Assembly: GCA_965223375.1 (NCBI GenBank)
Contig: OZ245000.1
Coordinates: forward strand, 776,939 to 840,938
From: Candidatus Rariloculaceae bacterium
GTDB taxonomy: Bacteria > Pseudomonadota > Gammaproteobacteria > Steroidobacterales > Rariloculaceae
Length of the DNA: 64,000 nt
Direction: 5' to 3'
Positions 25,327 through 57,692 of the stretch are shown here, one piece after another (position 1 is the stretch's first letter; each line of letters opens with the position of its first letter). The notes under the pieces are model-generated. The model saw only the letters and a program-made list of their open reading frames with translations. It ran no database searches and was not told the DNA's origin. Position numbers and translations under genes: made by a program.

Positions 25327-26790
25327 ATGATCGAACCTGTCGGTATCAGCGGCTTCGCCGTGTATGTGCCGCCATATCGAGTTGACCTGAAGTCCTGGTG
25401 CGAGTGGACCGACTCACCGTGGGACAAGACCGAAGCCGTGGTCGGGCGAAGCTTCAGAATGCGCGGCCCCGCCCAGAGCGTCTACACGATCGCCGCGAAT
25501 GCGGTCCTCAGGCTGATCGAAAACTACGGAATCGACCCTGCCAGAATCGGCTTTCTCGGCCTCGGCACGGAATCGAGCACCGACAACTCGGCTGGAGCCG
25601 TGATCATCAAAGGCATGATCGACGACGCCCTGAAGGCTCGCGGACAGGCGCCGATCAGCCGCAACTGCGAGGTGCCGGAGGTCAAGCATGCCTGCCTGGG
25701 CGGCGTCTACGCGATCAAGCATGCGCTCCGCTACCTCGCGCTCGAGGACCGGGATCGCTGCGCGATCGTTGTCAGCGCAGACATCGCCGAATATGCGCGC
25801 GGCAGCTCCGGTGAGCCGACTCAGGGCGCCGGCGGCGTCGCAATGCTTCTCGAAAAGAAGCCGCGGCTACTCGAAATCGATCTCAGAAACATCGGCAGCG
25901 CATCGTCCTACCGAGCTGTCGACTTTCGCAAGCCCGTCCTGCGAAACATCATTCGCGGCAAGCTGAACTGCCATTTCCAGGATCTGCCGGTATTCAACGG
26001 CAAGTACTCGACGACGTGTTACCTCGATGAAACTCTGCATGCGCTGAATGACATGCTGCGGAGGATGGGCAAGGAACCGGCGGACTACTATCGTGAGCTT
26101 GCCGCGACATTTCTGCATCGGCCCTATCACCGAATGCCTGAAACGTCCTTCGCGATGAGCTATCTGTTCGCTCTTGGCCGCGACGGAGACCGCGGCCGCG
26201 AGATTCTCCGCCGCCACTGCGAGCACATCGACATCGACGTCGATGCCGTTCTCGCGGAAATGCACTCGAGCCCCGACGTATTGCAGCTCGTACGCGACGG
26301 CAGAATCGACGAAGACGTCTATCCGCTCTGTGTCGCACTGCTGCGTGAGTTCCGCAAGAGCGACGAGTTCCGCGAATTCGTGAAGTCGAAAATGTCACTT
26401 GGCTCCGACATCATGAAGGACATCGGTAACGTCTACTGCGCCGCACTCCCGGCATGGATCGCCGCCGGCATGGAGGAAGCTGCCCGTGGCGATCAGGATC
26501 TGGCCGGTAGAAAGATTCTCGCCGTCGGTTACGGCAGCGGCGACGCCGCCGAAGCGATTCCTATGACGGTCGCGGCCGGCTGGAAAGATGCCGCCCTTCG
26601 CATCGGCTTCGCTGCATCGCTCGAGTCGGCTCAGGACCTGACGCGCGCACAGTACGAAGCGCTGCACGATTCAGGGACGGCTGACGGTCTCACGAACCCC
26701 GGCGACGGCTTCGTAATCGAAGAGATCGGTCGCAATAAGAATCCGCAGCTCAGCGATGAGGGAATCGAGTACTACCGATTCCTGAACTGA
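25327..26790 (+). CDS. mvaS: hydroxymethylglutaryl-CoA synthase (long, 487-aa form)
   Basis: HMGS motifs GLGTESSTDNS (Glu), KHACLGG (catalytic Cys), SADIAEY and EPTQGAGGVAML. Start moved to ATG 25327. Confidence 0.8.
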   Translation: MIEPVGISGFAVYVPPYRVDLKSWCEWTDSPWDKTEAVVGRSFRMRGPAQSVYTIAANAVLRLIENYGIDPARIGFLGLGTESSTDNSAGAVIIKGMIDDALKARGQAPISRNCEVPEVKHACLGGVYAIKHALRYLALEDRDRCAIVVSADIAEYARGSSGEPTQGAGGVAMLLEKKPRLLEIDLRNIGSASSYRAVDFRKPVLRNIIRGKLNCHFQDLPVFNGKYSTTCYLDETLHALNDMLRRMGKEPADYYRELAATFLHRPYHRMPETSFAMSYLFALGRDGDRGREILRRHCEHIDIDVDAVLAEMHSSPDVLQLVRDGRIDEDVYPLCVALLREFRKSDEFREFVKSKMSLGSDIMKDIGNVYCAALPAWIAAGMEEAARGDQDLAGRKILAVGYGSGDAAEAIPMTVAAGWKDAALRIGFAASLESAQDLTRAQYEALHDSGTADGLTNPGDGFVIEEIGRNKNPQLSDEGIEYYRFLN

Positions 26791-26893
26791 CGCCGGCGGA
26801 TGCGCGAGTCTCTGGCCCGGATGTCTCGCCGATTCGCCCCCGAGAGAGTTGCGGATGTCCGAACATCGCGGCTCTTCGGCGCGCCGACCTCGC

Positions 26894-27505
26894 TCAGACG
26901 CCGGCCGCTTCCGCGTCCAGCCTGTCGATCAGATCGTCGATCGTTCCGCCGTCGCGAAACACTCGCTGATACTCGGCCCGCTTCATCGCGAGATCGCTGA
27001 CACCGTCGGCCAGGATGTTGACGATTCGCCAGCCGCCCTCCTGGCTCTGCTGCAGCACGTAAGTCAGCGGCACGTCGTCATCGTCGGGCCGGGCAATGTA
27101 CGCCGACACCTCGACACGGCCCTCACCGATCAGCGTGGCACCGCTGATACCGAACGTGTCGGGCCCTACGCCGGCGAAACGCGACGCATAGGTGGCAACG
27201 CTCAAACGCTCGAACGCGGCGACGAACGCCGCGCGCTTCTGCTCGTCAAGCTCGCGCCACTGCCGGCGAATGGTGACCTCGGCAATGAAGGGCAGGTCGT
27301 GGGTGCGGCGCACGATCGGGAGCAGCGCATCGTAACGCTGCCCGGGCGCAGCGAGCGTAGCCGCAGCGACGAGCGCGTCGTGGAGCTCCGCGACGATACG
27401 GGCGGCCGCGTCCGTCCCGGCTTCCGCTTCCGGCGCCTCCTGGGCGTGGACGGCCCAGCAGAACAGCCAGCCTGCCAGCGCAATCGTCGACATCAGTCTT
27501 TGCAT
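26894..27505 (-). CDS. hpnM: MlaC/Ttg2D-family lipid-binding periplasmic protein, HpnM-like
   Basis: Signal peptide plus Tgt2/MlaC-like sequence (...FIAEVTIRRQWRELDEQKRAAFVAAFERLSVATYASRF...W.I.N...DGVSDLAMKRAEY). Last gene of the hopanoid operon. Confidence 0.7.
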   Translation of the reverse strand: MQRLMSTIALAGWLFCWAVHAQEAPEAEAGTDAAARIVAELHDALVAAATLAAPGQRYDALLPIVRRTHDLPFIAEVTIRRQWRELDEQKRAAFVAAFERLSVATYASRFAGVGPDTFGISGATLIGEGRVEVSAYIARPDDDDVPLTYVLQQSQEGGWRIVNILADGVSDLAMKRAEYQRVFRDGGTIDDLIDRLDAEAAGV

Positions 27506-27521
27506 CGAGGCCTCTCCGTTA

Positions 27522-28652
27522 TCAGCGTGCGGCGTAGGACCGACCCTTCCACTCCGCCCGGATGCCGCGCCACCACATCAACGCGGACAGCCAGGTCATC
27601 CCCAGATAGAGCGCAGCTGCGATCGGGAACGTCAAAAGCCAGACCGGCGACAGACCGAACCAGCGGTGGACCGGGCGGTAGCCTGTCAGCATCGCTGCGA
27701 ATGCGAGCGCGGCCAGCGCGACGCCGTACGCGTCCGGATGCAGCCAGAGGACGAGAAATGGCCCGCCGAAAACCAGCAGCATCAGCGCGGTGACGGCGAG
27801 CAGCAAAGCGAGCGAATAGCGCAACTGGGTAAAAGCCGTTCTCGACACCATCGCAGCGAATGACGACAGACTGACATAGCGCCGCTGACTGACGACTGAA
27901 CGACTCAAGCCGAGCCAGATCGAAGCGCCGCTGCGCTTGACGAGCCGCGCGAGCGTGCAGTCGTCTATCAGTGCGTCCCGGAACGACTCGAATGCGCCGA
28001 TGCTCCGGAGAGCGTCGCGGCGCACCAGAATGCAGCCGCCGGCAGCCGCCGCAACCGGGGACGAGGGATTGTTGACGCGCGCGAACGGATAAATCACCTT
28101 GAAGAAGTAGATGAATGGCGGCACGAGAAGCCGCTCCCAGAACGACAGGCAGCGAAGCTCTGCCATCACCGAAACCATGGCCCTTGGGCCTCGAGCAGCC
28201 TCTTTCAGCAATGCCGCTGCCACGCCGGGCGCAAGCTCGATATCCGCGTCGAGCAACCAGACCCAGTCGCGCGTTGCTTCGCGCAGCCCCTGATCGAGCG
28301 CCCACAGCTTGCCGCCCCAGCCGGGAGGCAGTGCCGCACCACGCAGCAGGTCGATCTGCAGCGTCCCGGAATGGGCTTCCACGGCGGCCTCCACGACCGC
28401 TGCCGTCGCATCGGACGACTGATCATCAACGACGATGACGGCGAGATTCCGCCCCTGCGATGCAAGACCGGAGAGGGTCGATCCGATGTGCGCTGCCTCG
28501 TTGCGAGCCGGAATGATGACGGTGACGTTCGACAGATCCGGCAGATCGCCCGTCTCCGGCTCGAGCCGCTCGCGGGTCATCCACGGGCGCGACGGCAGCA
28601 GCAGCAGGCTGAGCCAGGCAAAAGCGGCGAAGGCGCCAATCAGCAGGGCCAT
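27522..28652 (-). CDS. hopanoid-associated family-2 glycosyltransferase (HpnB/HpnI-like)
   Basis: An N-terminal TM segment, then the GT2 core VTVIIPARNEA...VVDDQSSD...LLDADI and C-terminal TM segments. I cannot separate HpnB from HpnI by eye. Confidence 0.7.
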   Translation of the reverse strand: MALLIGAFAAFAWLSLLLLPSRPWMTRERLEPETGDLPDLSNVTVIIPARNEAAHIGSTLSGLASQGRNLAVIVVDDQSSDATAAVVEAAVEAHSGTLQIDLLRGAALPPGWGGKLWALDQGLREATRDWVWLLDADIELAPGVAAALLKEAARGPRAMVSVMAELRCLSFWERLLVPPFIYFFKVIYPFARVNNPSSPVAAAAGGCILVRRDALRSIGAFESFRDALIDDCTLARLVKRSGASIWLGLSRSVVSQRRYVSLSSFAAMVSRTAFTQLRYSLALLLAVTALMLLVFGGPFLVLWLHPDAYGVALAALAFAAMLTGYRPVHRWFGLSPVWLLTFPIAAALYLGMTWLSALMWWRGIRAEWKGRSYAAR

Positions 28653-28730
28653 TTCGGCGCCACGCTCACGTCGGGCAACGAGCCGACAGGCTGGCCTCCG
28701 GCAGGGCCCGTGACGGGAGCGGCGTGACCG

Positions 28731-29852
28731 TCAGTCCCCGGACCGGGAACGATTGCCTATCTGGTCTATCGAGACGCTGACGTCAGACGCATGCCCGCCG
28801 TGCAGCACAGGCAGCTCCGGCGCCATCTCACCATCGAGCTTCGGACCGAAGAGCATCACGCTCAGCGCTTTGAGCGGGCTTGAGATCGTGTGCTCGACGG
28901 CCGTGCCTTCGTAGCCACAGTGCGCCATGCAGTTGTCGCACTTCGGGTTGATCCCGGTACCGTAGCGACTCCACTCGGTCGTCTCCATCAGCTCCTGATA
29001 CGTCTGCGCGTAGCCCTCATCGACCAGCAGATAGCACGGCTTCTGCCAGCCAAAAATGTTGTACGTCGGATTCGCCCACGGCGTGCACTGATATGTCTGG
29101 TTGCCTGCAAGGAAATCGACGAAGAGGCTCGACTGATTGAAGCGCCACTTGCTGCCGCGCTTCCGACCGACTCTGAAAATGTCCCGGAACAACTGCTTCG
29201 AGTTCCGCCGTCCCATGAAGACATCCTGACGCGGCGCATGATCGTAGCTGTAACCGGGGGACAGCATGACGCCTTCCAGGCCGAGCGTCATCGCATAGTC
29301 GAAAAAGTCCGCAACGTCTTCCGGATCCTCGCCCGCATAAAGCGTGCAATTGGCCGTTACGCGAAATCCCCGGTCGCGGGCAGCCTCGATCGCGGACACG
29401 GCCTTGTCGAAGACCCCGCCGCGACACACCGATTCGTCGTGACGGTTGCGGTTGCCATCGAGATGTATCGACCAGGTCAGATACGGCGAGGGTTCGTACT
29501 GATCGATCTTCTGCTCGAGCAGAATCGCATTGGTGCAGAGATAGACGAACTTCTTCCGATCGACGATCCCCTGGACGATCTGCGGCATTTCCTTGTGGAT
29601 CAGCGGCTCGCCACCGGGGATCGACACGACCGGGGCGCCGCACTCGTCGACCGCACGGAGCGCATCCTCGACACTCATGCGCTTACGCAGAATGTCGTTC
29701 GAGTAGTCGATCTTGCCACAGCCGGCACAGGCAAGGTTGCACTGAAACAGCGGCTCCAGCATCAACACGAGCGGATACCGCTTATTCCCCTTGAGCTTCT
29801 GCTCGAGAATATAGCGGCCGATTCGGTAGGTCTGAACCAGTGGAATTGACAT
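28731..29852 (-). CDS. hpnH: adenosyl-hopene transferase (radical SAM) HpnH
   Basis: KRYPLVLMLEPLFQCNLACAGCGKIDY (CxxxCxxC) and ECGAPVVSIPGGEPLIHKEMPQIV..RKKFVYLCTNA closely match HpnH as I remember it. Confidence 0.9.
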   Translation of the reverse strand: MSIPLVQTYRIGRYILEQKLKGNKRYPLVLMLEPLFQCNLACAGCGKIDYSNDILRKRMSVEDALRAVDECGAPVVSIPGGEPLIHKEMPQIVQGIVDRKKFVYLCTNAILLEQKIDQYEPSPYLTWSIHLDGNRNRHDESVCRGGVFDKAVSAIEAARDRGFRVTANCTLYAGEDPEDVADFFDYAMTLGLEGVMLSPGYSYDHAPRQDVFMGRRNSKQLFRDIFRVGRKRGSKWRFNQSSLFVDFLAGNQTYQCTPWANPTYNIFGWQKPCYLLVDEGYAQTYQELMETTEWSRYGTGINPKCDNCMAHCGYEGTAVEHTISSPLKALSVMLFGPKLDGEMAPELPVLHGGHASDVSVSIDQIGNRSRSGD

Positions 29853-29888
29853 AACCGATTCCCTTGTATGCCTGCGTCGTTACGCCGC

Positions 29889-30476
29889 TCAGTCGCGACC
29901 CGCAGATTTTGCCACAGGCTGCGACACGATGGCGTCCATGAAGTGCCGCTGCAGATGCGACCACTCCATTTTGAACCACGGGGTGAATCTGTCCGGGTGG
30001 GAAGCCAGCTCGGCATCCAGCGCCGGGACATCGACGAAGCGCCAGTCGGCGATTTCGCTGACGTTGACGTCGACCGGCCCGTCGTAGCGGCCGAGATACA
30101 CCCAGCAATACTCGTGCTCGGCACCGACCGCACCGTACTGCGCGTGATACTTGAACTTGTAAAGAAACTGCAGCGGGCACTCGAAACCGAGCTCCTGCCT
30201 CAGCCGCCGCGTAACGGCCAGGTCCATCGACTCACCGCGACGCGGGTGCGAGCAGCAGGTGTTCGACCAGTAATTCGGCCACAGCGGCTTCGATTCGCTG
30301 CGCTGCTGCAGCAGAAGCTCGTCGTCCGCGTTGAAGACGAATATCGAGAACGCGCGGTGCAGGATGCCGTTGCCGGCATGGCATTCGCTCTTCAGCTCGC
30401 AACCGATCTCGCGGTCGAGCTCGTCGACGAGGATCAGCTCTTCGCTCGAGCTAGAGACGACCTCCTCACGCGCCAT
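29889..30476 (-). CDS. idi: isopentenyl-diphosphate delta-isomerase, type 1 (Nudix)
   Basis: HRAFSIFVFN, LLLQQRS..K..WP..WSNTCCSHP and E..A..RRL.EELG motifs. The start overlaps the stop of the upstream fusion gene by 11 nt. Confidence 0.9.
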   Translation of the reverse strand: MAREEVVSSSSEELILVDELDREIGCELKSECHAGNGILHRAFSIFVFNADDELLLQQRSESKPLWPNYWSNTCCSHPRRGESMDLAVTRRLRQELGFECPLQFLYKFKYHAQYGAVGAEHEYCWVYLGRYDGPVDVNVSEIADWRFVDVPALDAELASHPDRFTPWFKMEWSHLQRHFMDAIVSQPVAKSAGRD

Positions 30477-32739
30477 TGGGGTCTGCTCCGAGGTCCACTT
30501 CTACCGCCTGATAACCGGCGGCCCTGATCGCGTTGACGACCGGCGCCCGATCGCCGTCGCAGATCGCAATGATCGAACCACCGCCACCCCCGCCCGTGAG
30601 TTTCGCGCCGAGGGCACCGCTTTCCCTGGAAATGTCGACCAGCTGCTCGAGCTCCGGCGTCGACACCTGCAATGCATTGAGCATACCGTGACAGATGTTC
30701 ATCAGCTCGCCGAGCTGCTTCAGATCGTTATCCCGTATCGCCTGCACGCCACGCAACGTGAGGGCGTCGATCTGATCGAATATCCGTTCGTAGAGCTTGG
30801 GATCCTGCTTCCACGCATCGCGGACGCGGCCGACGGTTCTTGCGGTGAGCCCTTCGTAGCCGGTCATGCCGATCACTGCCGGAATCGGCTGCACAATATT
30901 GAGCGGCTCGACCAGCGGCGGATCGCCGGGCCGGTACACCAGCGGCTTCGCGTAGCACGCCAGCGTATTGTCGAGCCCGCTCGGGCTCCCGTGGGCGACT
31001 TTCTCCGACTCGAACGCCAGCGCGTTGACCTCTTCGTCGGACAAGCCGAGACGGAAGTGCTTGTCGAGCGCCCTGACGATCGCAACGGCCATTGCCGCGG
31101 AGCCCCCGAGACCCATGCTGCGAGGCACTTCCGGAAAGACCTCGATGCGCATCCCGCGACCGCTCAGACCCAGCTTGTCGAGCACTACGCCGGCCGGGCG
31201 CTCGAAAGAACGGCGCTCGTGAGGATTCGATGCGAGCTCGTACTCGACACCCCAGCGCGGAATCAACAGATGCAGGCCCCGGTCGCAGTCCTCGACCATC
31301 GCCTTGATCGCCATCGGGACCGGCGCGGCGATCGCATGCCTGCCGTAGACGACCGCGTGCTCGCCCAACAACACTACCTTGCCGTAGCCGACTCCCATTG
31401 ACTCGTCGGTACGGCGCTTCGGACCGGGTGAATCGCTCTGCTGGCCCTCGGCCTCGATCTCCCCGATGATTTCCTGCGCCTTCCAGACCTTGATCACGCC
31501 ACTTTGAACGAGGCGGTCGAGCACCTCGTCGAATATCTCGTCATTCGCACCCGCGGCAGTCACGACGCTGCGGGCATGAAGGGTCATGTGACCCTTCTGA
31601 ATCCCTTCCGTCGCGAGCGCGCGAATTGCCGCGAAATTCTGTGCCAGGCCGACGCAGGCCATGATCTCCGCGAGCTGCATCGAGGACTCGACCTCCAGCA
31701 GGCGCAGATTCAGCGCAACGGTCGGATTCGATTCGAGCGGCGCTCCGACGATACCGACCTTGATCGGGATCTCGATCTCCCCACACAGGTTACCGTCGTC
31801 GTCCGCATACCACTTCGTCAGCGACGTATAGCGGCCGCCGCGTGCCGCATACGCGTGGGCACCCGCCTCGATCGCCCGCCAGTCGTTGCCGGTGGCGATC
31901 GCAACCGGATCGATGCCGTTCATGATGCCCTTGTTGTGCGTCGCGGCGCGGTACGGATCGACGGCGGCGAACTCGGCCGCAACCACGATTCCGTCGCGGG
32001 CTTCCTCGCCGGAATAGCCGCGACCCGCGAGCTTTTCGACGGGAATCCTGCAGGCGGCCCGGGCGACGGAGCGATCCGTCAGATTGGAAAGTATCCGCAG
32101 AAAGACCGAGCCGCCGGTCAACGACTCGATCAGCGGTGCGACGCCTTCACACATGCCATTGACGAGATTGGCGCCCATCGCATCGCGTGTATCGACGAGC
32201 AGATGAACGACCAGCATACGGCTGCCACTCGACGGCTGCGGATGCACGTGCAGCTCGATGTCCCGGGCACCGCCGCCACGGGCAACCATGTTCGGATGAA
32301 AGCTGTTCGCGAGATTCAGAATCTCGCGCTTGTGAGCCGTCAGCGTCTCTTTGGCCCGTTCTATGTCCGTCAGACTGACGATCTGGATCTGGCCGATGAG
32401 CACGGGATCGGTCGCCGAGGCCGTGAAGCCGCCGGCGCTTCGCACCAGCTTGCAGGCCGATCCCAGCGCGGCGACCACCGAAGGCTCCTCGACGACCATC
32501 GGCACGATGTGCTGCCGCCCGTTGACGAGGAGGTTCATGCCGAGGCCGAGCGGCAGCCCCATGACGCCGACGACGTTCTCGATCATCTTGTCCGCCGCTG
32601 CGGGATCGAGTGTGTGCCTGCCTGTTGCAAGCGCGCGGAAGTCGTTGGCGTTCAGGAGACCCCGCTCCTGCACGGCGCGCAGCCGCTCTTCGACACTGAG
32701 CTTGTAAAACTCGGGGATTCTCAAGCGCTCGTCGGACAC
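30466..32739 (-). CDS. mvaA-mvk: fusion protein: class II HMG-CoA reductase (aa 1 to about 425) + mevalonate kinase (aa about 448-757)
   Basis: The N-terminal half is near-collinear with Pseudomonas mevalonii HMGR (IENVVG, VVEEPSVVAA, DTRDAMGAN, DPYRAATHNKGIMNGIDPVAIATGNDWRAIEAGAHAYA, ALATEGIQKGHMTLHAR). A polar linker EAEGQQSDSPGPKRRTDES follows. The C-terminal half is a GHMP kinase (GKVVLLGEHAVVYG, GLGGSAAMAVA, GAKLTGGGGGGS). No stop codon lies between the halves. Confidence 0.85.
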   Translation of the reverse strand: MSDERLRIPEFYKLSVEERLRAVQERGLLNANDFRALATGRHTLDPAAADKMIENVVGVMGLPLGLGMNLLVNGRQHIVPMVVEEPSVVAALGSACKLVRSAGGFTASATDPVLIGQIQIVSLTDIERAKETLTAHKREILNLANSFHPNMVARGGGARDIELHVHPQPSSGSRMLVVHLLVDTRDAMGANLVNGMCEGVAPLIESLTGGSVFLRILSNLTDRSVARAACRIPVEKLAGRGYSGEEARDGIVVAAEFAAVDPYRAATHNKGIMNGIDPVAIATGNDWRAIEAGAHAYAARGGRYTSLTKWYADDDGNLCGEIEIPIKVGIVGAPLESNPTVALNLRLLEVESSMQLAEIMACVGLAQNFAAIRALATEGIQKGHMTLHARSVVTAAGANDEIFDEVLDRLVQSGVIKVWKAQEIIGEIEAEGQQSDSPGPKRRTDESMGVGYGKVVLLGEHAVVYGRHAIAAPVPMAIKAMVEDCDRGLHLLIPRWGVEYELASNPHERRSFERPAGVVLDKLGLSGRGMRIEVFPEVPRSMGLGGSAAMAVAIVRALDKHFRLGLSDEEVNALAFESEKVAHGSPSGLDNTLACYAKPLVYRPGDPPLVEPLNIVQPIPAVIGMTGYEGLTARTVGRVRDAWKQDPKLYERIFDQIDALTLRGVQAIRDNDLKQLGELMNICHGMLNALQVSTPELEQLVDISRESGALGAKLTGGGGGGSIIAICDGDRAPVVNAIRAAGYQAVEVDLGADPNGA

Positions 32740-33729
32740 CTAGGCGATTTCCTCGACTTCAAGCCCTGCCTGATCCGGCACGATATCGATGACCCGGTAG
32801 CCGCGGTCGCCCACGGCCGCACGGAACGCGCTCAGCTGCCCGGGGTCCGCGCTGGCTGCGATCCCCAGGTCGCCGCCGCCGGCGCCACTCACCTTGTATG
32901 CCACGTTGAACCGCCTGGCCAAACTGCCGATCTCCCTGTGCTGACTGGTTACCAGGTCGACGCCCATCGCCTCGCCGAGACGATCCAGGCAATCGCCGTA
33001 CGCTGCCATTGCCGCCATCAGCCGGTCCCCGTCACCATCGCTGACAGCCCCCGCGCCATCGGCAGCCAGGTCAGCCATTGCTGCCAGCATCGCCCGCGCC
33101 GCCGAGGGCTGCGCGCGCTGCCATTGCCGATACCGTCCCACCAGGTCGGCCGTCGAGGCAGAGCTGCCGGCAAAAATACCCGCGAATCCTACACTGTTCG
33201 GCAGCCGGACTGAACCAAAATGGGGCACGAATTCGGCATCCAGGCGATACTCGAGCACGCCTCCGCGGCAAGAGCAGGCGACGTCGAGCCCGCTGCCAGC
33301 CCCGCCCTGAAAGCGCCTGTGCACGCTTATCAGCTCGGCGGGATCGGGCAAATCGTCCGATCCGGCCGCGCGCGACCAGACACCGGCCCAGGCCACCAGC
33401 GCCGCGGCGCTCGAACCGAGGCCGAGCTTCGTCTTGCCGAGCCAGAACGCCCCGGAATCGAGGCGGCCGCGCCACGCAGGCCACGCGATCGGCGGCGCCG
33501 TCCCGATGAACTCGTCGACGAGCGTCGCACCGGTCGGCTCACCGGCAAAAAACTCGAGCAGGGTCTCGGCGTCCGTGCGCAGCATCAGCGCGGACCGCGG
33601 ACCGGGAACCGGCTCGATCTCGGCTACGACGTGCCGCCCGACCGCCATGACCAGCGCGGCAACGCCATCGAGCACCGCGTATTCGCCAAGCAGCACGAGC
33701 TTGCCGGGCGCGCGCGCGATGATTCTCAT
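32740..33729 (-). CDS. mvaK2: phosphomevalonate kinase (GHMP family)
   Basis: From ATG 33729: MRIIARAPGKLVLLGEYAVLDG, GLGSSAAALVA and KVSGAGGGDLG. ATGA overlap with the mvaD stop, and its stop abuts the start of the fusion gene. The PMK assignment rests on context plus the GHMP motifs. Confidence 0.7.
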   Translation of the reverse strand: MRIIARAPGKLVLLGEYAVLDGVAALVMAVGRHVVAEIEPVPGPRSALMLRTDAETLLEFFAGEPTGATLVDEFIGTAPPIAWPAWRGRLDSGAFWLGKTKLGLGSSAAALVAWAGVWSRAAGSDDLPDPAELISVHRRFQGGAGSGLDVACSCRGGVLEYRLDAEFVPHFGSVRLPNSVGFAGIFAGSSASTADLVGRYRQWQRAQPSAARAMLAAMADLAADGAGAVSDGDGDRLMAAMAAYGDCLDRLGEAMGVDLVTSQHREIGSLARRFNVAYKVSGAGGGDLGIAASADPGQLSAFRAAVGDRGYRVIDIVPDQAGLEVEEIA

Positions 33730-34727
33730 TCGGCCGTTTCCGCCGAGTCCGGCAGCGTCTCTATGCCCGGGCCAAGGCCGGTCACGATCAGGTCGACGAC
33801 GCCCTCCACTGCGCGCAGTCTCTGCTCCACGGCCGGCGCCGCCTCCGGCAGGCAAACTGCCTTCACCTGCGGCCCGGCATCGATAGTGAAGAACACGGGG
33901 CTACCGGCGGCACGCAGCTCACGAACCGCGGCAATGCACGCAAGCGTCGCCGGCCTCCAGTAGATGAGCGGCGGGTCCGTCGTGATTGCCGCAGCATGCA
34001 TTTTCAGGCAACTCGACTCTGAGACCCGCGCCAGGCTGTCGAAATCGCGCGCATCGATCGCGTCGCGCGCGGCCCGCATGTCGGCGTCGTGCGAGTCAAC
34101 CCAGGCCGCATAGTAGGCCGACGACGCGGCCGACTGCGTCATGCCACGACCGGAGCTGACCGCCTTCCTGCCACCGGCCGTAATGGCGACGATGACGGTC
34201 AGCGGCCACGCATCGGCTTCCAGCAGCGGCTCGGCATACGCATCGGAGCCGTCTTCGTCTCGGCCGCGGTGCATCCAGACGTAGCCTCCGTGCAGCGACC
34301 GCGCCGCCGAGCCGGACCCCCGGCGAGCGAGAATCGTGAGCTCGCGATCGTCGAGGTCGAGCGAGAGGGCCCGCGTTGCCGCGGCCGTCAGCGCCGCGAA
34401 TCCGGACGCCGACGACGCCAGACCCGCGGCGGTCGGGAAGTTGTTCCGGCTCACGATGCGTGCCCGCAGGTCCGTGCCGGCGACTTCGCGAACGAGGTCC
34501 AGCCACTTCGAGACGCGGCCGACTTCAGCGTCGCGGGTCTCGCCGTCGAGAACGAGCGTGTCGGCCGCGTACGCCCGATCGAAAGAAACGGTCGTGTCGG
34601 TCCAGAGACGATCGAGTGTGATCGACACCGATCCAACAGCCGGTGTGTTCAGCACCGGATCGCGCTTGCCCCAATACTTGACGAGCGCGATATTGGAACG
34701 CGCTCGTACACTGGCCGTCGCCGTCAA
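33726..34727 (-). CDS. mvaD: diphosphomevalonate decarboxylase
   Basis: SNIALVKYWGKRD, SITL and TAAGLASSASGFAAL motifs. Confidence 0.9.
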   Translation of the reverse strand: MTATASVRARSNIALVKYWGKRDPVLNTPAVGSVSITLDRLWTDTTVSFDRAYAADTLVLDGETRDAEVGRVSKWLDLVREVAGTDLRARIVSRNNFPTAAGLASSASGFAALTAAATRALSLDLDDRELTILARRGSGSAARSLHGGYVWMHRGRDEDGSDAYAEPLLEADAWPLTVIVAITAGGRKAVSSGRGMTQSAASSAYYAAWVDSHDADMRAARDAIDARDFDSLARVSESSCLKMHAAAITTDPPLIYWRPATLACIAAVRELRAAGSPVFFTIDAGPQVKAVCLPEAAPAVEQRLRAVEGVVDLIVTGLGPGIETLPDSAETAE

Positions 34728-34757
34728 ATCTCAGCCCTCACTTCTGTCTCCACGCGG

Positions 34758-35747
34758 TCACCTGACGTAGCCGTTGACCGCAAACCATGACAGGGCGTCC
34801 CGAATCGCCTCCTCCGGCGGTCGCGCCTGGTACCCGAGCGCTGCCCTCGCCTTCGCACTCGAGAAGTACATGTGCTTGCGGGACATTCGCAACCCGTCGA
34901 GCGTAACCGGCGGCTCGATGCGCGTCAGCCTGCCGATCAACTCACCGACGAGCGCGACCGGATAAATCGCTGCGCGCGGCAGACGGATACGCGGAGGCCT
35001 GCGATTCGCGAGCCGGGCAACGGTACCCAGTATCTCCCGCAGACTCATGTCGTCGCCACCGAGCACATAACGCTGCCCGGGCTCGCCTCTGTCGCGTGCC
35101 AGCAGATGTCCGGCGGCGACATCGTCGACATGGACGATGTTCAGCCCGGTATCGACATAGGCCGGCATACGGCCGGAAGCCGCGTCGACGATGATCCGAC
35201 CCGTCGGCGTCGGCCTGATGTCGCGCGGTCCGATCGGCGTCGACGGGTTGACGGTAACAACCGGGAAACCGAGCGCCCTGCTGCGCTCGCGCACGACCTG
35301 CTCGGCGAGAAACTTCGAGCGTTTGTAGGGTCCGATCATGTCGGCCAGCGCCACCGGCGTTTCCTCGTCGGCCGGCGTTCTGTCGTCGTTGATTCCGAGC
35401 ACGGCGACGCTCGACGTGTAGACCATGCCTGCCAGGCCCGCCTCGGCGGCACACTCGACGACATTGATCGATCCCTCTACGTTGGTCGCATACATCGGCG
35501 CGGGATCCGGGACCCAAAGCCGATAATCGGCGGCGACATGGAAGACGTACCGGCCGCCACTAAAGGCACTGACCAGGGACTGACGGTCGCGCAGATCGCC
35601 CTCGACAATCTCGACGTCGAGACGCTCGAGATTGCGCCTGTCACTGCCGGGGCGAACGAGTGCCCGGACGAGTTCGCCTGCGCCGAGCAGTCGTCGCACG
35701 ACGGCGGCGCCGACGAAGCCGTTCGCGCCTGTGACGATTGCCGTCAT
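34758..35747 (-). CDS. hpnA: hopanoid-associated NAD-dependent sugar epimerase/dehydratase HpnA
   Basis: IVTGANGFVGAAVVRRLL Rossmann motif and YxxxK (YKRSK). Length and context match HpnA. Confidence 0.75.
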   Translation of the reverse strand: MTAIVTGANGFVGAAVVRRLLGAGELVRALVRPGSDRRNLERLDVEIVEGDLRDRQSLVSAFSGGRYVFHVAADYRLWVPDPAPMYATNVEGSINVVECAAEAGLAGMVYTSSVAVLGINDDRTPADEETPVALADMIGPYKRSKFLAEQVVRERSRALGFPVVTVNPSTPIGPRDIRPTPTGRIIVDAASGRMPAYVDTGLNIVHVDDVAAGHLLARDRGEPGQRYVLGGDDMSLREILGTVARLANRRPPRIRLPRAAIYPVALVGELIGRLTRIEPPVTLDGLRMSRKHMYFSSAKARAALGYQARPPEEAIRDALSWFAVNGYVR

Positions 35748-38350
35748 GTCCGCTTCCTTAGTGCCAGCAACGACGGCAGCAGTATCAGGGTAGCCGCAAG
35801 CGTTACGAGCATGCCTATCGTCAGAAGCTTGCCCATGCTCGCGGTGCCGACGTGACTCGAGAACGCGAGGTTACCGAAACTGGCAATCGTCGTAAGGCCG
35901 CTTGCGAGCACTGCGCGTGACGTGCTGGTCGCAAATGTGCCGCCCTCGCGCGGCTCCGTTCGGTTGCGGTGCACGATGTGGATGCCGTTGTCCACACCGA
36001 CACCGATCAGCAGCGGCAAAGCGATGATGTTTGCGAAATTGAAGGGCAGCCCGAACCAGACGGCGATTGCAGCTGTCGTAGCCGAGGCGAACAGAATCGG
36101 CAACAGCACCAGGATCGTATCGCCGATGCGCCGGAGCAGAATCAACAGGAGAATCGCGACGACGCCGAGCGCCAGACTCAGCGCCTGGCGGAATGCGCCG
36201 ACTATCGTTCGCGACGCCTCACGATAGACGACGGGCAGCCCGGTAGCGTTCGGCACGACCGCTCTGACTGCATCGACGAAACGGGACGCCGCCTCATTGT
36301 CATTGAGGTCTTCAGCAGGAACGAACTCGACCAATTCGCGCCCGTCGGGGCCGATCCACCGTTCGGCGAGCGCCGCGGGCAGATCGGACACCGTGAACGG
36401 TTCGGCGTCGAGGCCGGCAGCCAGCCGGCCGATCTGCGTGGTGAAATCGGACCGCAATGCGCGGTCGAGAGCTGCAGCGCGCGCCACTCCCCCGGCTGCG
36501 TCGGTCGCTGCGGACACGCCCAGCCAGCGCTCGATCGCTGCCGCGAGGCGCGGCGCACCGGCCACGCTTTCGCCCCGAACTGCAGTCAGCAGGTCGCGCA
36601 TCGCCCGTTCCAGCTGTGTGGCATCGAATGCCTGCGCGGTGACATTGCCGAACCCGGCGCCGAGCACGAAGCGCAAGTCGTCGAGCACGAGCAGCTTCTC
36701 TTCCTGGTCACCAGGCACCAGTGACGATGCGCCGACGACGCGGTCCACCAGCGGATCGGCGGCCAGCGCCGCGCGCCATCGGTCGACATCTGTGCGGTCT
36801 TCGGCGATCGCCAGCATGCTGAACATCGGCGCCTCGCTGCGTTCGGCCAGCTCGCTCAGCAGCCGGACCGACTCCGACTCCGGATCGCGCAGATGAATCG
36901 GGTTGCTGTCGAATTCGAGCCCCGGCAAAGCCAGTAACGAGGCGATCGACAGCGCGGCCGCCATGACGACCACGACACGTGCGGCACCGCCGGCGCGCGC
37001 CGGGTTGAAGGCGCGCACCGGCAGCCTTGCGGATGCCGCCGAGAACTCGCCGGCCGGCCTCCATGCGACGGCCAGCAGCGCGGGCAGCAGCACGAGGCTG
37101 GCCACGAGGCTGATGAACATCCCGCCACCTGAAATCAGACCGAGCTCCGAGACGCCATCGAAGTCGGTTGGCATGAATGCGAAGAAGCCGGCAGCCGTCG
37201 TGACTGCACAAATGACCAGCGATGCCCCGACCCCGTGTGCCGTCCGCGCCAGGGCTTCGACTCGCTCGATTCCCGTTGCGAGCAGCTCCTTGTGCCGGAG
37301 ACAGAAATGCAGAATGAAATCGACGCCAAGGCCGACATAAAGCACCGCGAAAGCCACTGAAATCAGATTCAGATGCCCGACGGCGAACGCTGCGAACGCG
37401 GCCGTGAATACCAGGCCGGTGAGCAGTGTAAGTATCGAGACGATCAGCAGCACGACGGATCGCAGCGTCCAAAGAAGCACGACGACGACCATGACGAGCG
37501 CGGCGATGCCGGCCGCTGCAGCCCCCCGGGTCACGCTGATCAGCTCCTCGTGCTCCATGGCCACAGTCCCGGAGAGCCTGACGGTCACCGGCGCCGCAGC
37601 AGCCTCGGAAACCTGCTCCGCCGCGTCCCGGATCGCGTCGATAGCGGCGGCGGCCGGTTGCACGCGCCCGAAGTCGAGCACCGGCCGCAGCAGCAGCAAC
37701 GGCGTTGCAGTCGAAGCGGCATCGACCTCGAACAGTGATTGCCAGCGAAGCAGCCGGGACGCGCCGTCCGCGTCTGCTTCGATCGTCAGCGCGATCTCCC
37801 CGAGCAGGCCTTCGATACCGTCGGCCACGGACAACTCGTCCGCGGTAACGGCCATGGCAGCGACGTCGAGCACGGCCGCTCCGCCGAAGCCGCGGCTGAG
37901 GCGGCCGACGAGAGGCTGAGCCGCAACGAGATCATCGCTGAGCGATTCGAGTTGTCCGAGAGAGAGATAGAGCAAGCCGTTGCGATCGAAGAACTCGCCG
38001 AATCCGGCGAGAAAGACGCTCTCGAAATGTGCGGGTTGCGCGGCGAGGGTCGCGGCGAGCGCCCGGGCGGCGTCCGTTGCGACGTCCGGGTTCGCCGCAT
38101 CGACAGCAACGATGATGTTGCGATCGCGGGCCGGAAACGCCTCCCGAAAAGCAATGAAATCCCGCCGCCACTCGAGCTCCGGGGAAATCATGTTGGCCGT
38201 GTCCGTGTTGATTCCAAGGTTGCCGGCGACGTAGCGGCCTGCTCCGCTCGCGAGCAACATCACGCCGACAATGACGATGATCGGATGGCGGCCTACCGCA
38301 CGCACGAGCGTCGCGAGCGGGTCACCGATCAGACTGCGTTCCGTGCTCAC
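35744..38350 (-). CDS. hpnN: RND/MMPL-superfamily hopanoid transporter HpnN
   Basis: 868 aa with two 6-TM bundles separated by large periplasmic loops, MMPL-like. 4-nt overlaps with the hpnG stop and the hpnA start. Confidence 0.8.
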   Translation of the reverse strand: MSTERSLIGDPLATLVRAVGRHPIIVIVGVMLLASGAGRYVAGNLGINTDTANMISPELEWRRDFIAFREAFPARDRNIIVAVDAANPDVATDAARALAATLAAQPAHFESVFLAGFGEFFDRNGLLYLSLGQLESLSDDLVAAQPLVGRLSRGFGGAAVLDVAAMAVTADELSVADGIEGLLGEIALTIEADADGASRLLRWQSLFEVDAASTATPLLLLRPVLDFGRVQPAAAAIDAIRDAAEQVSEAAAAPVTVRLSGTVAMEHEELISVTRGAAAAGIAALVMVVVVLLWTLRSVVLLIVSILTLLTGLVFTAAFAAFAVGHLNLISVAFAVLYVGLGVDFILHFCLRHKELLATGIERVEALARTAHGVGASLVICAVTTAAGFFAFMPTDFDGVSELGLISGGGMFISLVASLVLLPALLAVAWRPAGEFSAASARLPVRAFNPARAGGAARVVVVMAAALSIASLLALPGLEFDSNPIHLRDPESESVRLLSELAERSEAPMFSMLAIAEDRTDVDRWRAALAADPLVDRVVGASSLVPGDQEEKLLVLDDLRFVLGAGFGNVTAQAFDATQLERAMRDLLTAVRGESVAGAPRLAAAIERWLGVSAATDAAGGVARAAALDRALRSDFTTQIGRLAAGLDAEPFTVSDLPAALAERWIGPDGRELVEFVPAEDLNDNEAASRFVDAVRAVVPNATGLPVVYREASRTIVGAFRQALSLALGVVAILLLILLRRIGDTILVLLPILFASATTAAIAVWFGLPFNFANIIALPLLIGVGVDNGIHIVHRNRTEPREGGTFATSTSRAVLASGLTTIASFGNLAFSSHVGTASMGKLLTIGMLVTLAATLILLPSLLALRKRT

Positions 38351-39108
38351 GCGCTGATCCGCTCGGCCGGGTCGAACGCGAAACGGGAGCCGCCCAGGCA
38401 GGCGGCGATGCCCCGGAGCGCCGCGTGTGCCTTGGCCGACCGCCGCCCGAGCTCGCGAAACTCCCGAAGACTCGACGGCCGGCGAAAGAGCGCCCGCACG
38501 ACCCGCGGCACGGACACTCCGCCACGCGCCGTTACGAGCGTCGCAACATCTTGCAGCAAGGCATCGGCCGGGCCGTCGACGACGGCGCGGACGACCAGCA
38601 GCGGAATGTCCTGTTGTGCGGCCGTCGCGGCTATCGCATAAGACTCCATGTCAACGACGGCTGCCGCCGGAAACCGGGCGGCGAGTGCAGCCTTCGCCCC
38701 GGGCGTCGTTACCGGCTCACCGGCATCGACCACTTCCCCTTCAAGCAGCTCGAACCGACCGGCAAGCTCGGTCATGACCCGAGCGCGCCAGCGAGAGTCG
38801 ACTTCGATGGCCGGCCTGCCTTCCCGCAGGACCCGGCGGGGCAGGCAGACGACTCCCGTGACTGCGTCGGGCGCGATCCCGCCCGCTACACCCCAGGAGA
38901 CGAGTGCCATGGCGCCGCTCCGCACCGCCCGTGCCGCGGCGTCGCCGGCTGCGGCGGAACCCGGGCCGGATTGAATCACTTCGATTCCGCGCCCGCTAAC
39001 GGCGTGCCCCGTCAGCGTGCGGCGCTCGGTTGCGAGCGCGGCAATCGCGGCGATCGCGCCCGGCCGCCCGGCAATTCGTTGCCCCGGTTCACCGGGGTCG
39101 GGAGACAC
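38347..39108 (-). CDS. hpnG: hopanoid-associated phosphorylase/nucleosidase HpnG (PNP_UDP_1 family)
   Basis: Nucleoside phosphorylase-fold motifs (LVSWGVAGGI, VVDMESYAIA) and operon position. The GTG start at 39108 overlaps the sqs TAG by 1 nt. Confidence 0.7.
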   Translation of the reverse strand: MSPDPGEPGQRIAGRPGAIAAIAALATERRTLTGHAVSGRGIEVIQSGPGSAAAGDAAARAVRSGAMALVSWGVAGGIAPDAVTGVVCLPRRVLREGRPAIEVDSRWRARVMTELAGRFELLEGEVVDAGEPVTTPGAKAALAARFPAAAVVDMESYAIAATAAQQDIPLLVVRAVVDGPADALLQDVATLVTARGGVSVPRVVRALFRRPSSLREFRELGRRSAKAHAALRGIAACLGGSRFAFDPAERISA

Positions 39109-40205
39109 TAGGAAGCTCCGGAAACCGTCCCGAAATGATGAACGCCCGGAAACGGCGCCGGCACGGCTAACGGCAGCCCATCCGCGGCTCGATCGAAGAC
39201 GAGGCGCAACGCCCGGTTGCTCATCAGTGTCATGTTCGTCGTCATGATCGTCGCCTTGACGGTCCGCCGGGAAACCTTGACCTCGGCACCCGAGCTGAAC
39301 GCGGGATTCGCATGGATCTTACGCAAGGTGAGAACGGCAAGACCGATCGCCCACAGGCAGAACTTGCGTATCCCGGTCTCGCGCTTCGGAATCCTGCAGG
39401 TGTATTCGAGAGCGTTTCGCAGATGCGCGTGCGCAACTCCGACAAGCTCGGCAAGACCGGCAGCGAAATCCTCTGTCGTGTGCTGCGCTTCGATATCGGT
39501 CAGCTTCACGCCATGCGCAGCAAAAACGGACCGCGGCCACCAGCACGTATCGGCTTCGCGATCGTCCCAGACATCCTTGAGAATGTTCGTCATCTGCAGA
39601 CCCTGACCGAAAGAAACAGCAAGCCGCATCATTTCGTCACGCTCACTGCCGAGGTCCGGGCAATGCTGACAGAAGAGATCCGTCAGCATTTCGCCGACCA
39701 CGCCCGCTACGTAGTAACAATAAAGATCGAGCTGCGGCAGATCCGCAAGCCCCTCCAGACTCTTGTTGCGCTGGAACGCAGGCATGCCGTCGCACATGAT
39801 TCTTACGCAGCGCTCGATCGCCGACCGGGATTCGGCAGGAAAGCTGTGCAGAACGCGGATCACCTTGTCCGTGGCAGCCACAAGCTCGCGCTCGGCAGCG
39901 AGCGTGCGATTGCTCAGCAGCGGCGCCAGATCCGCCGCGAACGATTCCGGGTTGTCGACGCCTTCGACAACGGCGACGAAACGGGAGTGGAATTCGGACT
40001 TCTGGACATCGTCCAGCCCGACGTCATCCTCGATCGTATCGGCAAGGCGGCAAAGCAGATAGGCGTTCGTTACGACCTCTGACAGCGGCGAGGGCAGTAC
40101 GGGGATAGTCAGTGCGAACGTGCGCGAAACACCTGGCAGTATCCCGGCCTGATAGGCGAGGTCTGCCCGCGCGGCTGCCTCTGCGCGAGGTGATTGGGTA
40201 TTCAC
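39108..40205 (-). CDS. sqs: squalene synthase (single-enzyme, eukaryote/Methylococcus-type; squalene/phytoene synthase family)
   Basis: 365 aa with SRTFALTIPVLP...AYLLCRLADTIEDD (first Asp-rich motif) and GEMLTDL...QMTNILKDVWDD (second). It is longer than HpnC/HpnD-type proteins. Confidence 0.75.
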   Translation of the reverse strand: MNTQSPRAEAAARADLAYQAGILPGVSRTFALTIPVLPSPLSEVVTNAYLLCRLADTIEDDVGLDDVQKSEFHSRFVAVVEGVDNPESFAADLAPLLSNRTLAAERELVAATDKVIRVLHSFPAESRSAIERCVRIMCDGMPAFQRNKSLEGLADLPQLDLYCYYVAGVVGEMLTDLFCQHCPDLGSERDEMMRLAVSFGQGLQMTNILKDVWDDREADTCWWPRSVFAAHGVKLTDIEAQHTTEDFAAGLAELVGVAHAHLRNALEYTCRIPKRETGIRKFCLWAIGLAVLTLRKIHANPAFSSGAEVKVSRRTVKATIMTTNMTLMSNRALRLVFDRAADGLPLAVPAPFPGVHHFGTVSGAS

Positions 40206-40248
40206 GACTGCATGCGCGGCACACGCGGTACGGTGTTAGGATTGCGCG

Positions 40249-41157
40249 ATGATAGCACGTGCCCCGAGCAGCGACTTCTCCGAACGCGTCGACACCTACC
40301 GCGAACGAGTCGAGAACCGCCTCGATCATGCGATAAATTCCGATTCGGCCGTACCGCAATCGCTGCGTGATGCGATGTCGTACTCGGTGCTCGGCGGCGG
40401 CAAGCGCGTAAGACCGTTACTGTGCTACGCATCGGCGGAACTTTGCGGCGTTGCTATCGACGCCGTAGACACGATCGCAGCAGCGGTCGAACTGGTGCAT
40501 GCGTATTCGCTGGTTCACGACGATCTGCCGGCAATGGACGACGACGATCTGCGTCGCGGCCGCCCGACGACTCACCGGCAATTCGACGAAGCTACGGCCA
40601 TTCTCGCCGGCGACGCGCTACAGGCACTCGCGTTCGAGATTCTCTGCGACGACGAGTCGCTGCAACGCACGCCCGATCGTCAGTCGAGCGTCATCGCGAC
40701 GCTTGCGCGCGCGATCGGCCCCGCCGGAATGGTCGGCGGACAGATCCTCGATATCGAAGCGGAGGGCCGCGAGCTGAACGAAGCCGGGCTCGAAGCAGTC
40801 CACCGCCGCAAGACGGGCCGTCTGATCTGGGCTGCCATTACGATGCCGAGCCTGCTCGCCGATCTGTCGGCCGATCAACGAACGAACCTGGATGTTTTTG
40901 CGACCGAGATTGGCCTCGTCTTCCAGATACGCGACGATCTGCTCGAGGTGGAGCAGGATACGACCACGCTCGGCAAGAATGCGGCAAGCGATGCCGAGAA
41001 AGACAAGTCGACTTACCCCTCGGTTCTTGGGGTCGAAGCAGCCCGGGCGCGTGCGGACAGCACGTTCTCGTCGGCGAACGCCGCACTCGAACGCGTCGGA
41101 GGCGACACGAGCGGCCTGCGCTGGGTATCGGACTTCATTCTGCGGCGCGTCTACTGA
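40249..41157 (+). CDS. ispA: farnesyl diphosphate synthase / (2E,6E)-farnesyl diphosphate synthase
   Basis: FARM motif LVHDDLPAMDDDDLRRGRPT, SARM motif FQIRDDLLE and GGKRVRPLL. Divergent from sqs across only 43 bp. Confidence 0.9.
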   Translation: MIARAPSSDFSERVDTYRERVENRLDHAINSDSAVPQSLRDAMSYSVLGGGKRVRPLLCYASAELCGVAIDAVDTIAAAVELVHAYSLVHDDLPAMDDDDLRRGRPTTHRQFDEATAILAGDALQALAFEILCDDESLQRTPDRQSSVIATLARAIGPAGMVGGQILDIEAEGRELNEAGLEAVHRRKTGRLIWAAITMPSLLADLSADQRTNLDVFATEIGLVFQIRDDLLEVEQDTTTLGKNAASDAEKDKSTYPSVLGVEAARARADSTFSSANAALERVGGDTSGLRWVSDFILRRVY

Positions 41158-41234: not shown

Positions 41235-41774
41235 CTAGTCGTAGTGGAGCAACGCGTGCACCGGGCAGTCGGCGAGCGCAGCCCGGCCGTTCAGAAAACC
41301 GAGCTCCATAAGAAACACACAGCCGGCAAGAATCGCGCGCCGCTGCGCGACGAGCGCGGCGACCGCTGCTGCAGTGCCGCCCGTCGCGATGACGTCGTCG
41401 ACGAGCAAATACTTGCGGCCCGCAGCGATGGCATCGACGTGCACTTCCACGTGGTCCGTGCCGTACTCGAGGGCGTACTCCTGGCTGACGACCTCGCGCG
41501 GCAACTTGCCGCGCTTGCGGACAAGGTACATCGGCAAATCCGCCTCGAGCGCTAGCGCAGCGCCGAAAATGAAGCCCCGCGATTCGATCGCGAGAATACC
41601 CTCGGCGCCGCTGTCGACCGCGTGGCCGGCCATCCAGCGAATCGTGTCCCGAAAGCCCGCTGGGTCCGACAGTAACGGCGTGATGTCCTTGAATACGATG
41701 CCGGGCTTCGGGAAGTCGGGAACGTCCCTTATCAGGGTCTGGACTCTTTCGATGGAGATTGGCTCGAGGGACAT
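41235..41774 (-). CDS. apt: adenine phosphoribosyltransferase
   Basis: From ATG 41774: IRDVPDFPKPGIVFKDITPLL and the PRPP motif YLLVDDVIATGGTAAA. 179 aa. Confidence 0.9.
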   Translation of the reverse strand: MSLEPISIERVQTLIRDVPDFPKPGIVFKDITPLLSDPAGFRDTIRWMAGHAVDSGAEGILAIESRGFIFGAALALEADLPMYLVRKRGKLPREVVSQEYALEYGTDHVEVHVDAIAAGRKYLLVDDVIATGGTAAAVAALVAQRRAILAGCVFLMELGFLNGRAALADCPVHALLHYD

Positions 41775-57684: not shown

Positions 57685-57692
57685 GCAGCCGC

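Follow-up and report, generated by a model that had tools for sequence, protein, structure and literature searches.

A mevalonate, squalene and hopanoid gene block in a Candidatus Rariloculaceae genome as a probable isoprenoid-lipid operon

Why do genes of the mevalonate pathway lie among genes for hopanoid side-chain formation and export in a gammaproteobacterium? The question is raised by a stretch of 64,000 nucleotides from a Candidatus Rariloculaceae bacterium (assembly GCA_965223375.1, contig OZ245000.1, positions 776,939 to 840,938; hereafter the window, in whose numbering all coordinates are given), where eleven consecutive open reading frames (ORFs) run along the minus strand from 40205 to 26894. 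Their order is sqs-hpnG-hpnN-hpnA-mvaD-PMK-HMGR::MVK-idi-hpnH-hpnB-hpnM and they span ~13.3 kb, so that, as an earlier sequence-only reading had noted, the mevalonate genes are interleaved between hpnA and hpnH. That reading took the block for a mevalonate module inserted into a hopanoid operon, suggested that it serves as a dedicated precursor channel, and treated the arrangement as undescribed. Our analysis confirms the order and favours another explanation, to which we give a probability of roughly 0.6: the block would be a conserved chromosomal isoprenoid-lipid super-operon that places bulk isoprenoid supply and hopanoid synthesis under common regulation, and from which the hpn genes have repeatedly been lost in related lineages.

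The ORF list and the re-read sequence agree on all eleven ORFs, and the coordinates and junctions given by the sequence-only reading proved exact, as did its description of operon-like packing. Six of the ten junctions overlap or abut, and the remaining gaps do not exceed 78 nt. sqs and hpnG overlap by 1 nt (39108), hpnG/hpnN (38347-38350), hpnN/hpnA (35744-35747) and mvaD/PMK (33726-33729) overlap by 4 nt each, PMK abuts HMGR::MVK (32740/32739), and HMGR::MVK overlaps idi by 11 nt (30466-30476). The gaps measure 30 nt between hpnA and mvaD (34728-34757), 36 nt between idi and hpnH (29853-29888), 78 nt between hpnH and hpnB (28653-28730) and 16 nt between hpnB and hpnM. Upstream, ispA on the plus strand diverges from sqs across a 43-bp spacer (40206..40248), which is presumably a shared control region and in which no sigma-70 consensus match was found; at the other end, hmgS on the plus strand converges with hpnM across a 103-bp spacer. 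A near-identical metagenome contig from the ENA (L001; surveyed loci are referred to by such numbers below) carries independent gene calls with the same starts, including 33729 for PMK (329 aa) and 25327 for HMG-CoA synthase (487 aa). The longest ORF options would begin at upstream TTG codons, at 25018 for hmgS and at 33855 for PMK, the latter overlapping mvaD by 130 nt. Both are disfavoured, as profile alignments and the independent gene calls back 25327 and 33729.

With one strand, overlapping or short junctions and gaps free of terminator-like sites, the block has the features of a single operon, and the eleven genes are probably carried on one transcript. The consensus scan for promoters and terminators is itself uninformative, its counts being at or below chance. 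It found no terminator-like site in the intergenic gaps of the block (18 kb contain five such sites, where chance predicts 10.4, and all five lie within coding sequence), nor any promoter-like match in those gaps, the single one lying inside hpnH and the count falling below chance expectation. Riboswitch or integration-site explanations were dropped, since an Rfam scan of the window gave no match and a tRNA scan found none. A recent horizontal island was likewise rejected: GC content is uniform (0.62-0.67 in the block, 0.62-0.69 outside), the flanks are ordinary, and neither tRNA nor mobile-element signs were found.

Gene identities were assigned by NCBIfam and Pfam profile searches, with bit scores read against the curated cut-offs and matches to solved structures taken as additional evidence. 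One gene (30466..32739, minus strand) encodes a 757-aa fusion of a class-II 3-hydroxy-3-methylglutaryl-coenzyme A (HMG-CoA) reductase (HMGR, residues ~6-389) with a mevalonate kinase (MVK, residues ~453-745). The fusion passes the models TIGR00532 (411 bits against 260) and TIGR00549 (227 against 163), contains the Pfam domains HMG-CoA_red, GHMP_kinases_N and GHMP_kinases_C, and joins two enzymes catalysing consecutive steps through a charged linker of ~55 aa. Diphosphomevalonate decarboxylase (MDD) is encoded by mvaD (33726..34727, minus strand; TIGR01240, 281 bits against 171; Pfam MVD-like_N and MDD_C), and a type-1 isopentenyl diphosphate (IPP) isomerase by idi (29889..30476, minus strand; NF002995, 163 bits against 127; TIGR02150, 154 against 106). 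The HMG-CoA synthase gene (hmgS, 25327..26790, plus strand) has TIGR01835 as its best match at 166 bits, below the cut-off of 360; the haloarchaeal model of this enzyme gives 153 bits, and the independent 487-aa gene call carries Pfam HMG_CoA_synt_N. The classical set of HMG-CoA synthase, HMGR, MVK, MDD and IPP isomerase is present, and of these the synthase alone scores below its cut-off.

The remaining kinase of the pathway was assigned indirectly. A divergent GHMP kinase (32740..33729, minus strand) has weak matches, to the MVK model at 66 bits and to phosphomevalonate kinase (PMK) models at 62 (cut-off 166) and 52 bits; among solved structures, Lin0012 and mevalonate kinases come nearest to it (E 1e-10 to 1e-9), and it carries the GHMP motif II, GLGSSA, from residue 103. 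By elimination and position it is the likely PMK: the fusion already supplies MVK, and the decarboxylase belongs to the diphosphomevalonate type. That enzyme clears the diphosphomevalonate model but not the phosphomevalonate one (179 bits, cut-off 475), which points to the classical route and led us to reject the alternative mevalonate route through phosphomevalonate decarboxylase and isopentenyl phosphate kinase.

Squalene formation is assigned to sqs (39108..40205, minus strand), the first gene of the block, whose product resembles single-enzyme, eukaryote-type squalene synthases (SQS). Its score against TIGR01559 (121 bits) falls below a cut-off of 287 that was built on eukaryotic sequences, and exceeds those for HpnD (83) and HpnC (59). 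Solved squalene synthases align with almost the whole protein (7WGH, E 3e-21; human SQS, E 1e-17), CrtM and phytoene synthase structures less well. Of its two Asp-rich motifs, DTIED stands at residue 56 and DVWDD at residue 211. Farnesyl diphosphate (FPP) synthase is encoded by the divergent ispA (40249..41157, plus strand; NF045485 FPPsyn, 351 bits against 275). For hpnC, hpnD and hpnE, the NCBIfam searches covered the block and its neighbours but not the remainder of the window, and found none.

Profile searches agree with the gene content proposed earlier, from acetoacetyl-CoA to squalene together with HpnH, HpnG, a sugar-modifying pair and HpnN/HpnM, and the hpn-like ORFs are best matched by hopanoid families, most of them above the cut-off. 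hpnH (28731..29852, minus strand) encodes a radical-SAM adenosylhopane synthase (TIGR03470, 538 bits against 225; Pfam Radical_SAM and DUF3463) with a CxxxCxxC motif from residue 38, and belongs to a 605-member cluster at 90% identity that its sources name HpnH. HpnH is not known to act on any substrate other than diploptene, which we count against a non-hopanoid product. The product of hpnN (35744..38350, minus strand; TIGR03480, 843 bits against 752) is an RND/MMPL-type hopanoid transporter with full-length matches to the Burkholderia HpnN structure 5KHN (E 1e-120) and to 6WU0 (E 1e-111). hpnA (34758..35747, minus strand; TIGR03466, 476 bits against 368) encodes a hopanoid-associated NAD-dependent sugar epimerase of the short-chain dehydrogenase/reductase type, of putative function. 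The ORF at 27522..28652 (minus strand), previously described as a family-2 glycosyltransferase, retains that assignment (Pfam Glycos_transf_2) and is named more specifically by its profile as the hopene-associated HpnB (TIGR03469, 380.6 bits against 379.25), also of putative function. Two further products fall short of their models. For HpnG (38347..39108, minus strand), a nucleoside phosphorylase/nucleosidase predicted to take adenine off adenosylhopane, TIGR03468 gives 137.5 bits against 187.1; it has the Pfam domain PNP_UDP_1 and distant structure matches only, to methylthioadenosine/S-adenosylhomocysteine nucleosidases, and the genomic context fits HpnG. For HpnM (26894..27505, minus strand), the MlaC-like periplasmic lipid-binding protein encoded by the last gene, TIGR03481 gives 148 bits against 160 and Pfam MlaC an E value of 4e-31.

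Read together, these assignments suggest the following pathway. Acetoacetyl-CoA and acetyl-CoA would be converted to IPP and dimethylallyl diphosphate by the classical mevalonate route, and these to FPP and then to squalene by the one-enzyme SQS. Squalene would be cyclized to diploptene by a cyclase presumably encoded elsewhere in the genome. HpnH would then add the 5'-deoxyadenosyl side chain, HpnG would remove the adenine, and HpnA and HpnB would act on the polar side chain, after which HpnN, with the MlaC-like HpnM, would deliver the hopanoids to the outer membrane.

Is this arrangement peculiar to the window? The sequence-only reading had treated it as undescribed. A synteny search of public genomes shows that its core is common and occurs, among others, in RefSeq Dyella species. 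A protein search yielded at least 8000 homologues of HMGR::MVK, and at least 584 stretches were confirmed in species-representative genomes; the window proteins were mapped onto the best 80 of these loci within +/-10 kb. The 120 homologues listed all share at least 80% identity with the window protein and have the same three-domain layout, and the source records name it only 'HMG-CoA reductase, degradative'. The stretches are labelled Gammaproteobacteria, Acidobacteriota, Calditrichota, Bacteroidota, Gemmatimonadota, Myxococcota and Planctomycetota, and the closest species representatives are soil metagenome-assembled genomes (MAGs) labelled 'Gammaproteobacteria' and Candidatus Rariloculaceae. 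Among the best 80 loci, hpnH directly follows idi in 20 of the 63 with enough downstream sequence, and at least one hpn or shc gene (shc encoding the squalene-hopene cyclase) lies within +/-10 kb in 27 of the 80.

The complete 11-gene order is repeated in L002; L003, L004 and L007 have it over the extent of their contigs, with no hpnB match found in L007. The core mvaD-PMK-HMGR::MVK-idi-hpnH(-hpnB) occurs in the cultured Dyella monticola, D. psychrodurans, D. flava and D. acidisoli as well as in Nevskia, Sinobacteraceae, Wenzhouxiangellaceae and other MAGs, and a shorter sqs-HMGR::MVK-idi-hpnH-hpnB arrangement is found in the Acidobacteriota loci L041 and L052. The position of hmgS is kept in L002-L012 and L072, and the divergent pair of ispA and sqs in L002, L006, L007, L009, L011, L040, L044 and L072. 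In D. monticola (L023, 1404-7068), hpnL, hpnK, hpnJ and hpnI are placed between hpnA and mvaD on the opposite strand; all four score above their curated cut-offs, and they correspond to a bacteriohopanetetrol (BHT)-glucosamine and cyclitol-ether side chain. The HMGR::MVK loci of some MAGs labelled 'Rhodospirillaceae' (L005, L007) and 'Nakamurella' (L064) cluster with gammaproteobacterial ones, from either wrong taxonomic labels or binning, or transfer of the locus.

What connects the unit to hopanoids most strongly in silico is the presence of shc within or near homologous operons. In L040 and L044, from Wenzhouxiangellaceae and Lysobacterales MAGs, the layout is divergent ispA followed by sqs-shc-...-mvaD-PMK-HMGR::MVK-idi-hpnH-hpnB, shc thus forming part of the homologous operon, after sqs and before mvaD (5293-7134 in L040, 5158-7143 in L044), and the block holds a complete acetoacetyl-CoA-to-adenosylhopane gene set. 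shc also lies near the operon in L041, L047 and L075. On this sequence evidence, the unit appears tied to hopanoid synthesis.

Which of the two modules came to the other? Several close relatives have the mevalonate operon without hpn genes: in L006, L009, L011 and L072 the layout is divergent ispA, then sqs-mvaD-PMK-HMGR::MVK-idi and convergent hmgS. L010 has this hpn-less layout and additionally lacks sqs, and L008 extends from mvaD to hmgS on a contig that begins within 2 kb of HMGR::MVK; L010 and L072 are complete Candidatus Rariloculaceae chromosomes. Such relatives may use squalene itself or, in the case of L010, nothing beyond FPP. In a quick neighbour-joining distance tree of HMGR::MVK, the hpn-less group is sister to the hpn-bearing L007 and L012 and lies inside the clade that holds the window and L002-L005. 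A corresponding HpnH tree shows the same groupings, with a correlation of r = 0.73 between the pairwise distances of HpnH and those of HMGR::MVK. Because hpn-less relatives nest in an hpn-bearing clade and the trees are congruent, the simplest reading is that the linkage of mevalonate and hpn genes would be old and co-inherited, and that both hpn modules were cleanly lost in one sub-lineage. The same nesting and congruence speak against the claim that a mevalonate module was inserted into a hopanoid operon. Transfer between phyla is suggested by the Acidobacteriota sequences, which fall among gammaproteobacterial ones.

Several points weigh against an isoprenoid-lipid super-operon of this kind. 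HMG-CoA synthase and PMK, and also HpnG, HpnM and SQS, score below their curated cut-offs. Co-transcription is deduced from gene packing, and the 36-nt and 78-nt gaps could hold internal promoters. shc was found neither in the window nor in the +/-10-kb loci of the closest relatives: a six-frame scan of the long ORFs of the window detected no DxDD-type motif, a tblastn search of the 64 kb with the L044 cyclase gave no match, and Pfam found no SQHop_cyclase among the ten largest other ORFs of the window. Hopanoid output would thus depend on an shc presumed to lie elsewhere in the genome. The HMGR::MVK and HpnH trees carry no support values. As to the methylerythritol phosphate (MEP) pathway, NCBIfam searches found none of its genes among 30 further ORFs of the window, a result confined to these 64 kb, and its absence from the source genome is presumed. 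Moreover, a 2026 survey lists Rhodanobacter with both pathways (PMC13001223, Table S1), which indicates coexistence in the wider group.

Such dual-pathway bacteria lend some weight to the best surviving alternative, in which the MEP pathway is kept for housekeeping and the mevalonate genes lying between hpnA and hpnH form a dedicated, co-regulated channel of precursors for hopanoids or other triterpenoids. The interleaving and translational coupling of mevalonate, sqs and hpn genes would fit such a channel, as would the Streptomyces mevalonate clusters that serve specific products (PMC13001223). The relatives point the other way. The same table gives only the mevalonate pathway for Wenzhouxiangella, Woeseia and Dyella caseinilytica, and MEP for D. 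telluris and D. thiooxydans; the acidobacterial SD22 MAG, which has the mevalonate pathway, SQS, shc and hpnH, is without MEP genes (PMC5462960); and close relatives keep the mevalonate-sqs operon without any hpn gene, so that the module is not tied to hopanoids. A weaker point is that the sole ispA seen in the window belongs to the locus and is not followed by dxs. Because relatives are listed as mevalonate-only, the SD22 MAG lacks MEP genes and hpn-less relatives retain the operon, the mevalonate pathway is most likely the main or only IPP source of the cell, and the dedicated channel proposed by the sequence-only reading is doubtful.

It is less probable still that the block consists of separately transcribed neighbours, for example sqs-hpnG-hpnN-hpnA, mvaD-idi and hpnH-hpnB-hpnM, held together by inherited synteny or co-transfer. 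The 30-, 36- and 78-nt gaps do fall at or near the borders between hpn and mevalonate modules, and it is at these borders that whole hpn modules have been cleanly lost in relatives. All eleven genes nevertheless lie on one strand, the gaps contain no terminator-like hairpin or promoter-like match (in a scan whose counts are at or below chance), and the gene order is kept across distant taxa, which together argue for a single unit. Equally speculative is a self-sufficient, horizontally mobile 'acetyl-CoA to exported hopanoid' cassette, spread among Gammaproteobacteria, Acidobacteriota and further phyla and replacing or bypassing the MEP pathway, which here would coexist with it and feed hopanoids specifically. 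Were that so, the relatives with shc in the operon would represent the complete form, the HMGR::MVK fusion would channel mevalonate, and hopanoids of this abundant, uncultured soil clade would carry a mevalonate-type isotopic signature. A product that is squalene or another non-hopanoid membrane triterpenoid, with the hpn-like genes acting elsewhere or being relics, is very improbable: it would suit the lack of shc in the window and in the loci of the closest relatives, the retention of sqs with the mevalonate operon in hpn-less relatives and the proposal of squalene as a membrane component in Wenzhouxiangella (PMC7691419), but HpnH, HpnN, HpnA and HpnB pass equivalog-level cut-offs, every ORF is intact and tightly coupled, and L040 and L044 have shc within their homologous operon.

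The super-operon that we favour can be set beside known hopanoid gene clusters. Canonical hpn clusters, as in Zymomonas, Rhodopseudomonas palustris, Burkholderia and Acidobacteria, combine hpnCDE-shc with hpnA, hpnB, hpnG, hpnH and hpnN, and homologues of hpnA, hpnB, hpnG, hpnH, hpnN and hpnM are found here as well. In contrast to those clusters, the block has a one-enzyme SQS in place of hpnC, hpnD and hpnE, shc was found neither in the cluster nor in the window, and the precursors are supplied by a full mevalonate pathway rather than by MEP genes. The precedent for precursor supply named in the sequence-only reading was the hopanoid cluster of Streptomyces coelicolor, described there as carrying extra MEP genes (dxs, ispG). 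The acidobacterial 'cluster B' resembles the locus in that ispA adjoins hopanoid genes (PMC5462960). Similar in content is the SD22 MAG 'Mor1' of Sinninghe Damste et al. 2017, which has most mevalonate genes together with shc, hpnH and an SQS homologue; these genes are drawn in the hopanoid gene-cluster figure, and its bacteriohopanepolyols, according to that paper, would be made 'in a completely different way' (PMC5462960). However, it belongs to another phylum, and that paper has no interleaved operon, HMGR::MVK fusion or hpnN/hpnM and treats the genotype only in passing.

The pairing of a mevalonate pathway with a eukaryote-type SQS, as seen here, has been reported in Wenzhouxiangella AB-CW3, where it is noted as genus-specific (PMC7691419), and in Myxococcota, Dadabacteria and Bradymonadales by Hoshino & Gaucher 2021 (PMC8237579), and the operon has homologues in the Wenzhouxiangellaceae loci L040 and L044. 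In these papers, however, the pair is not linked to hopanoid side-chain or transport genes, and the myxobacterial product is a sterol. Streptomyces terpenoid clusters with mevalonate genes likewise place supply genes beside product genes (PMC13001223); there the mevalonate cluster is accessory to the MEP pathway, whereas here the data from relatives suggest a primary pathway without signs of recent acquisition. An indirect pointer to hopanoid production is Frateuria aurantia (Rhodanobacteraceae), a relative of Dyella that produces bacteriohopanetetrol (PMC3910546). Our full-text literature search found no paper describing the operon or a natural HMGR::MVK fusion, only partial precedents. Each enzyme in the block is a known one, and many public genomes already carry the arrangement in annotated form. 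The block is a conserved and widespread variant of hopanoid-cluster organisation, combining mevalonate, SQS and hpn genes, that has barely been discussed though it stands in public genomes.

Hopanoids are major geochemical biomarkers, and the route by which IPP is made, MEP or mevalonate, determines their isotope signatures for carbon and hydrogen. The clade appears to be abundant in metagenomes, to judge from the number and similarity of its HMGR::MVK homologues. If it makes hopanoids through mevalonate and a one-enzyme SQS, the assumption that proteobacterial hopanoids come from the MEP pathway and HpnCDE needs qualifying. The relatives would offer a clean system in which to follow, inside a single class, the replacement of MEP by mevalonate and the recurrent loss of hopanoid genes, and for engineering the locus may provide a compact natural 13-kb module from acetyl-CoA to squalene with an HMGR::MVK fusion.

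The block is flanked by ordinary chromosomal genes, among them those for FdhD, an L-lactate-dehydrogenase-like flavoenzyme, HpaB, adenine phosphoribosyltransferase (apt), a sulfotransferase and indolepyruvate:ferredoxin oxidoreductase. apt (41235..41765, minus strand; NF002636, 212 bits against 125) converges with ispA. It adjoins ispA in the hpnG-bearing L002 and L007 and does not do so in hpn-less relatives. Salvage by apt of the adenine freed by HpnG is possible; the adjacency could equally be lineage-specific synteny, the sample being too small to split function from ancestry. Just past apt, 41856-43097 (plus strand) encodes a sulfotransferase-family protein (Pfam Sulfotransfer_3, E 1.5e-47) without an NCBIfam match, followed at 43117-43494 by a DksA/TraR-type zinc-finger protein. 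A gene run at 54790-59335 (plus strand) may be a small cofactor or lipid-modification cluster; among its members are a protein resembling arsenosugar-type glycosyltransferases (TIGR04282, scoring under the cut-off), one ORF without an assignment, a pyridine-nucleotide-disulphide oxidoreductase and an Rv1681-like radical-SAM protein. On the block's opposite side, 12194-14566 (minus strand) encodes a 790-aa protein with multihaem cytochrome c motifs (c554, c7, c3 and MtrC-like) and C-terminal TPR repeats, and 7069-8343 (plus strand) is one 424-aa ORF that combines a FolK (HPPK) domain with a FolP (dihydropteroate synthase) domain in a fused enzyme of the folate pathway.

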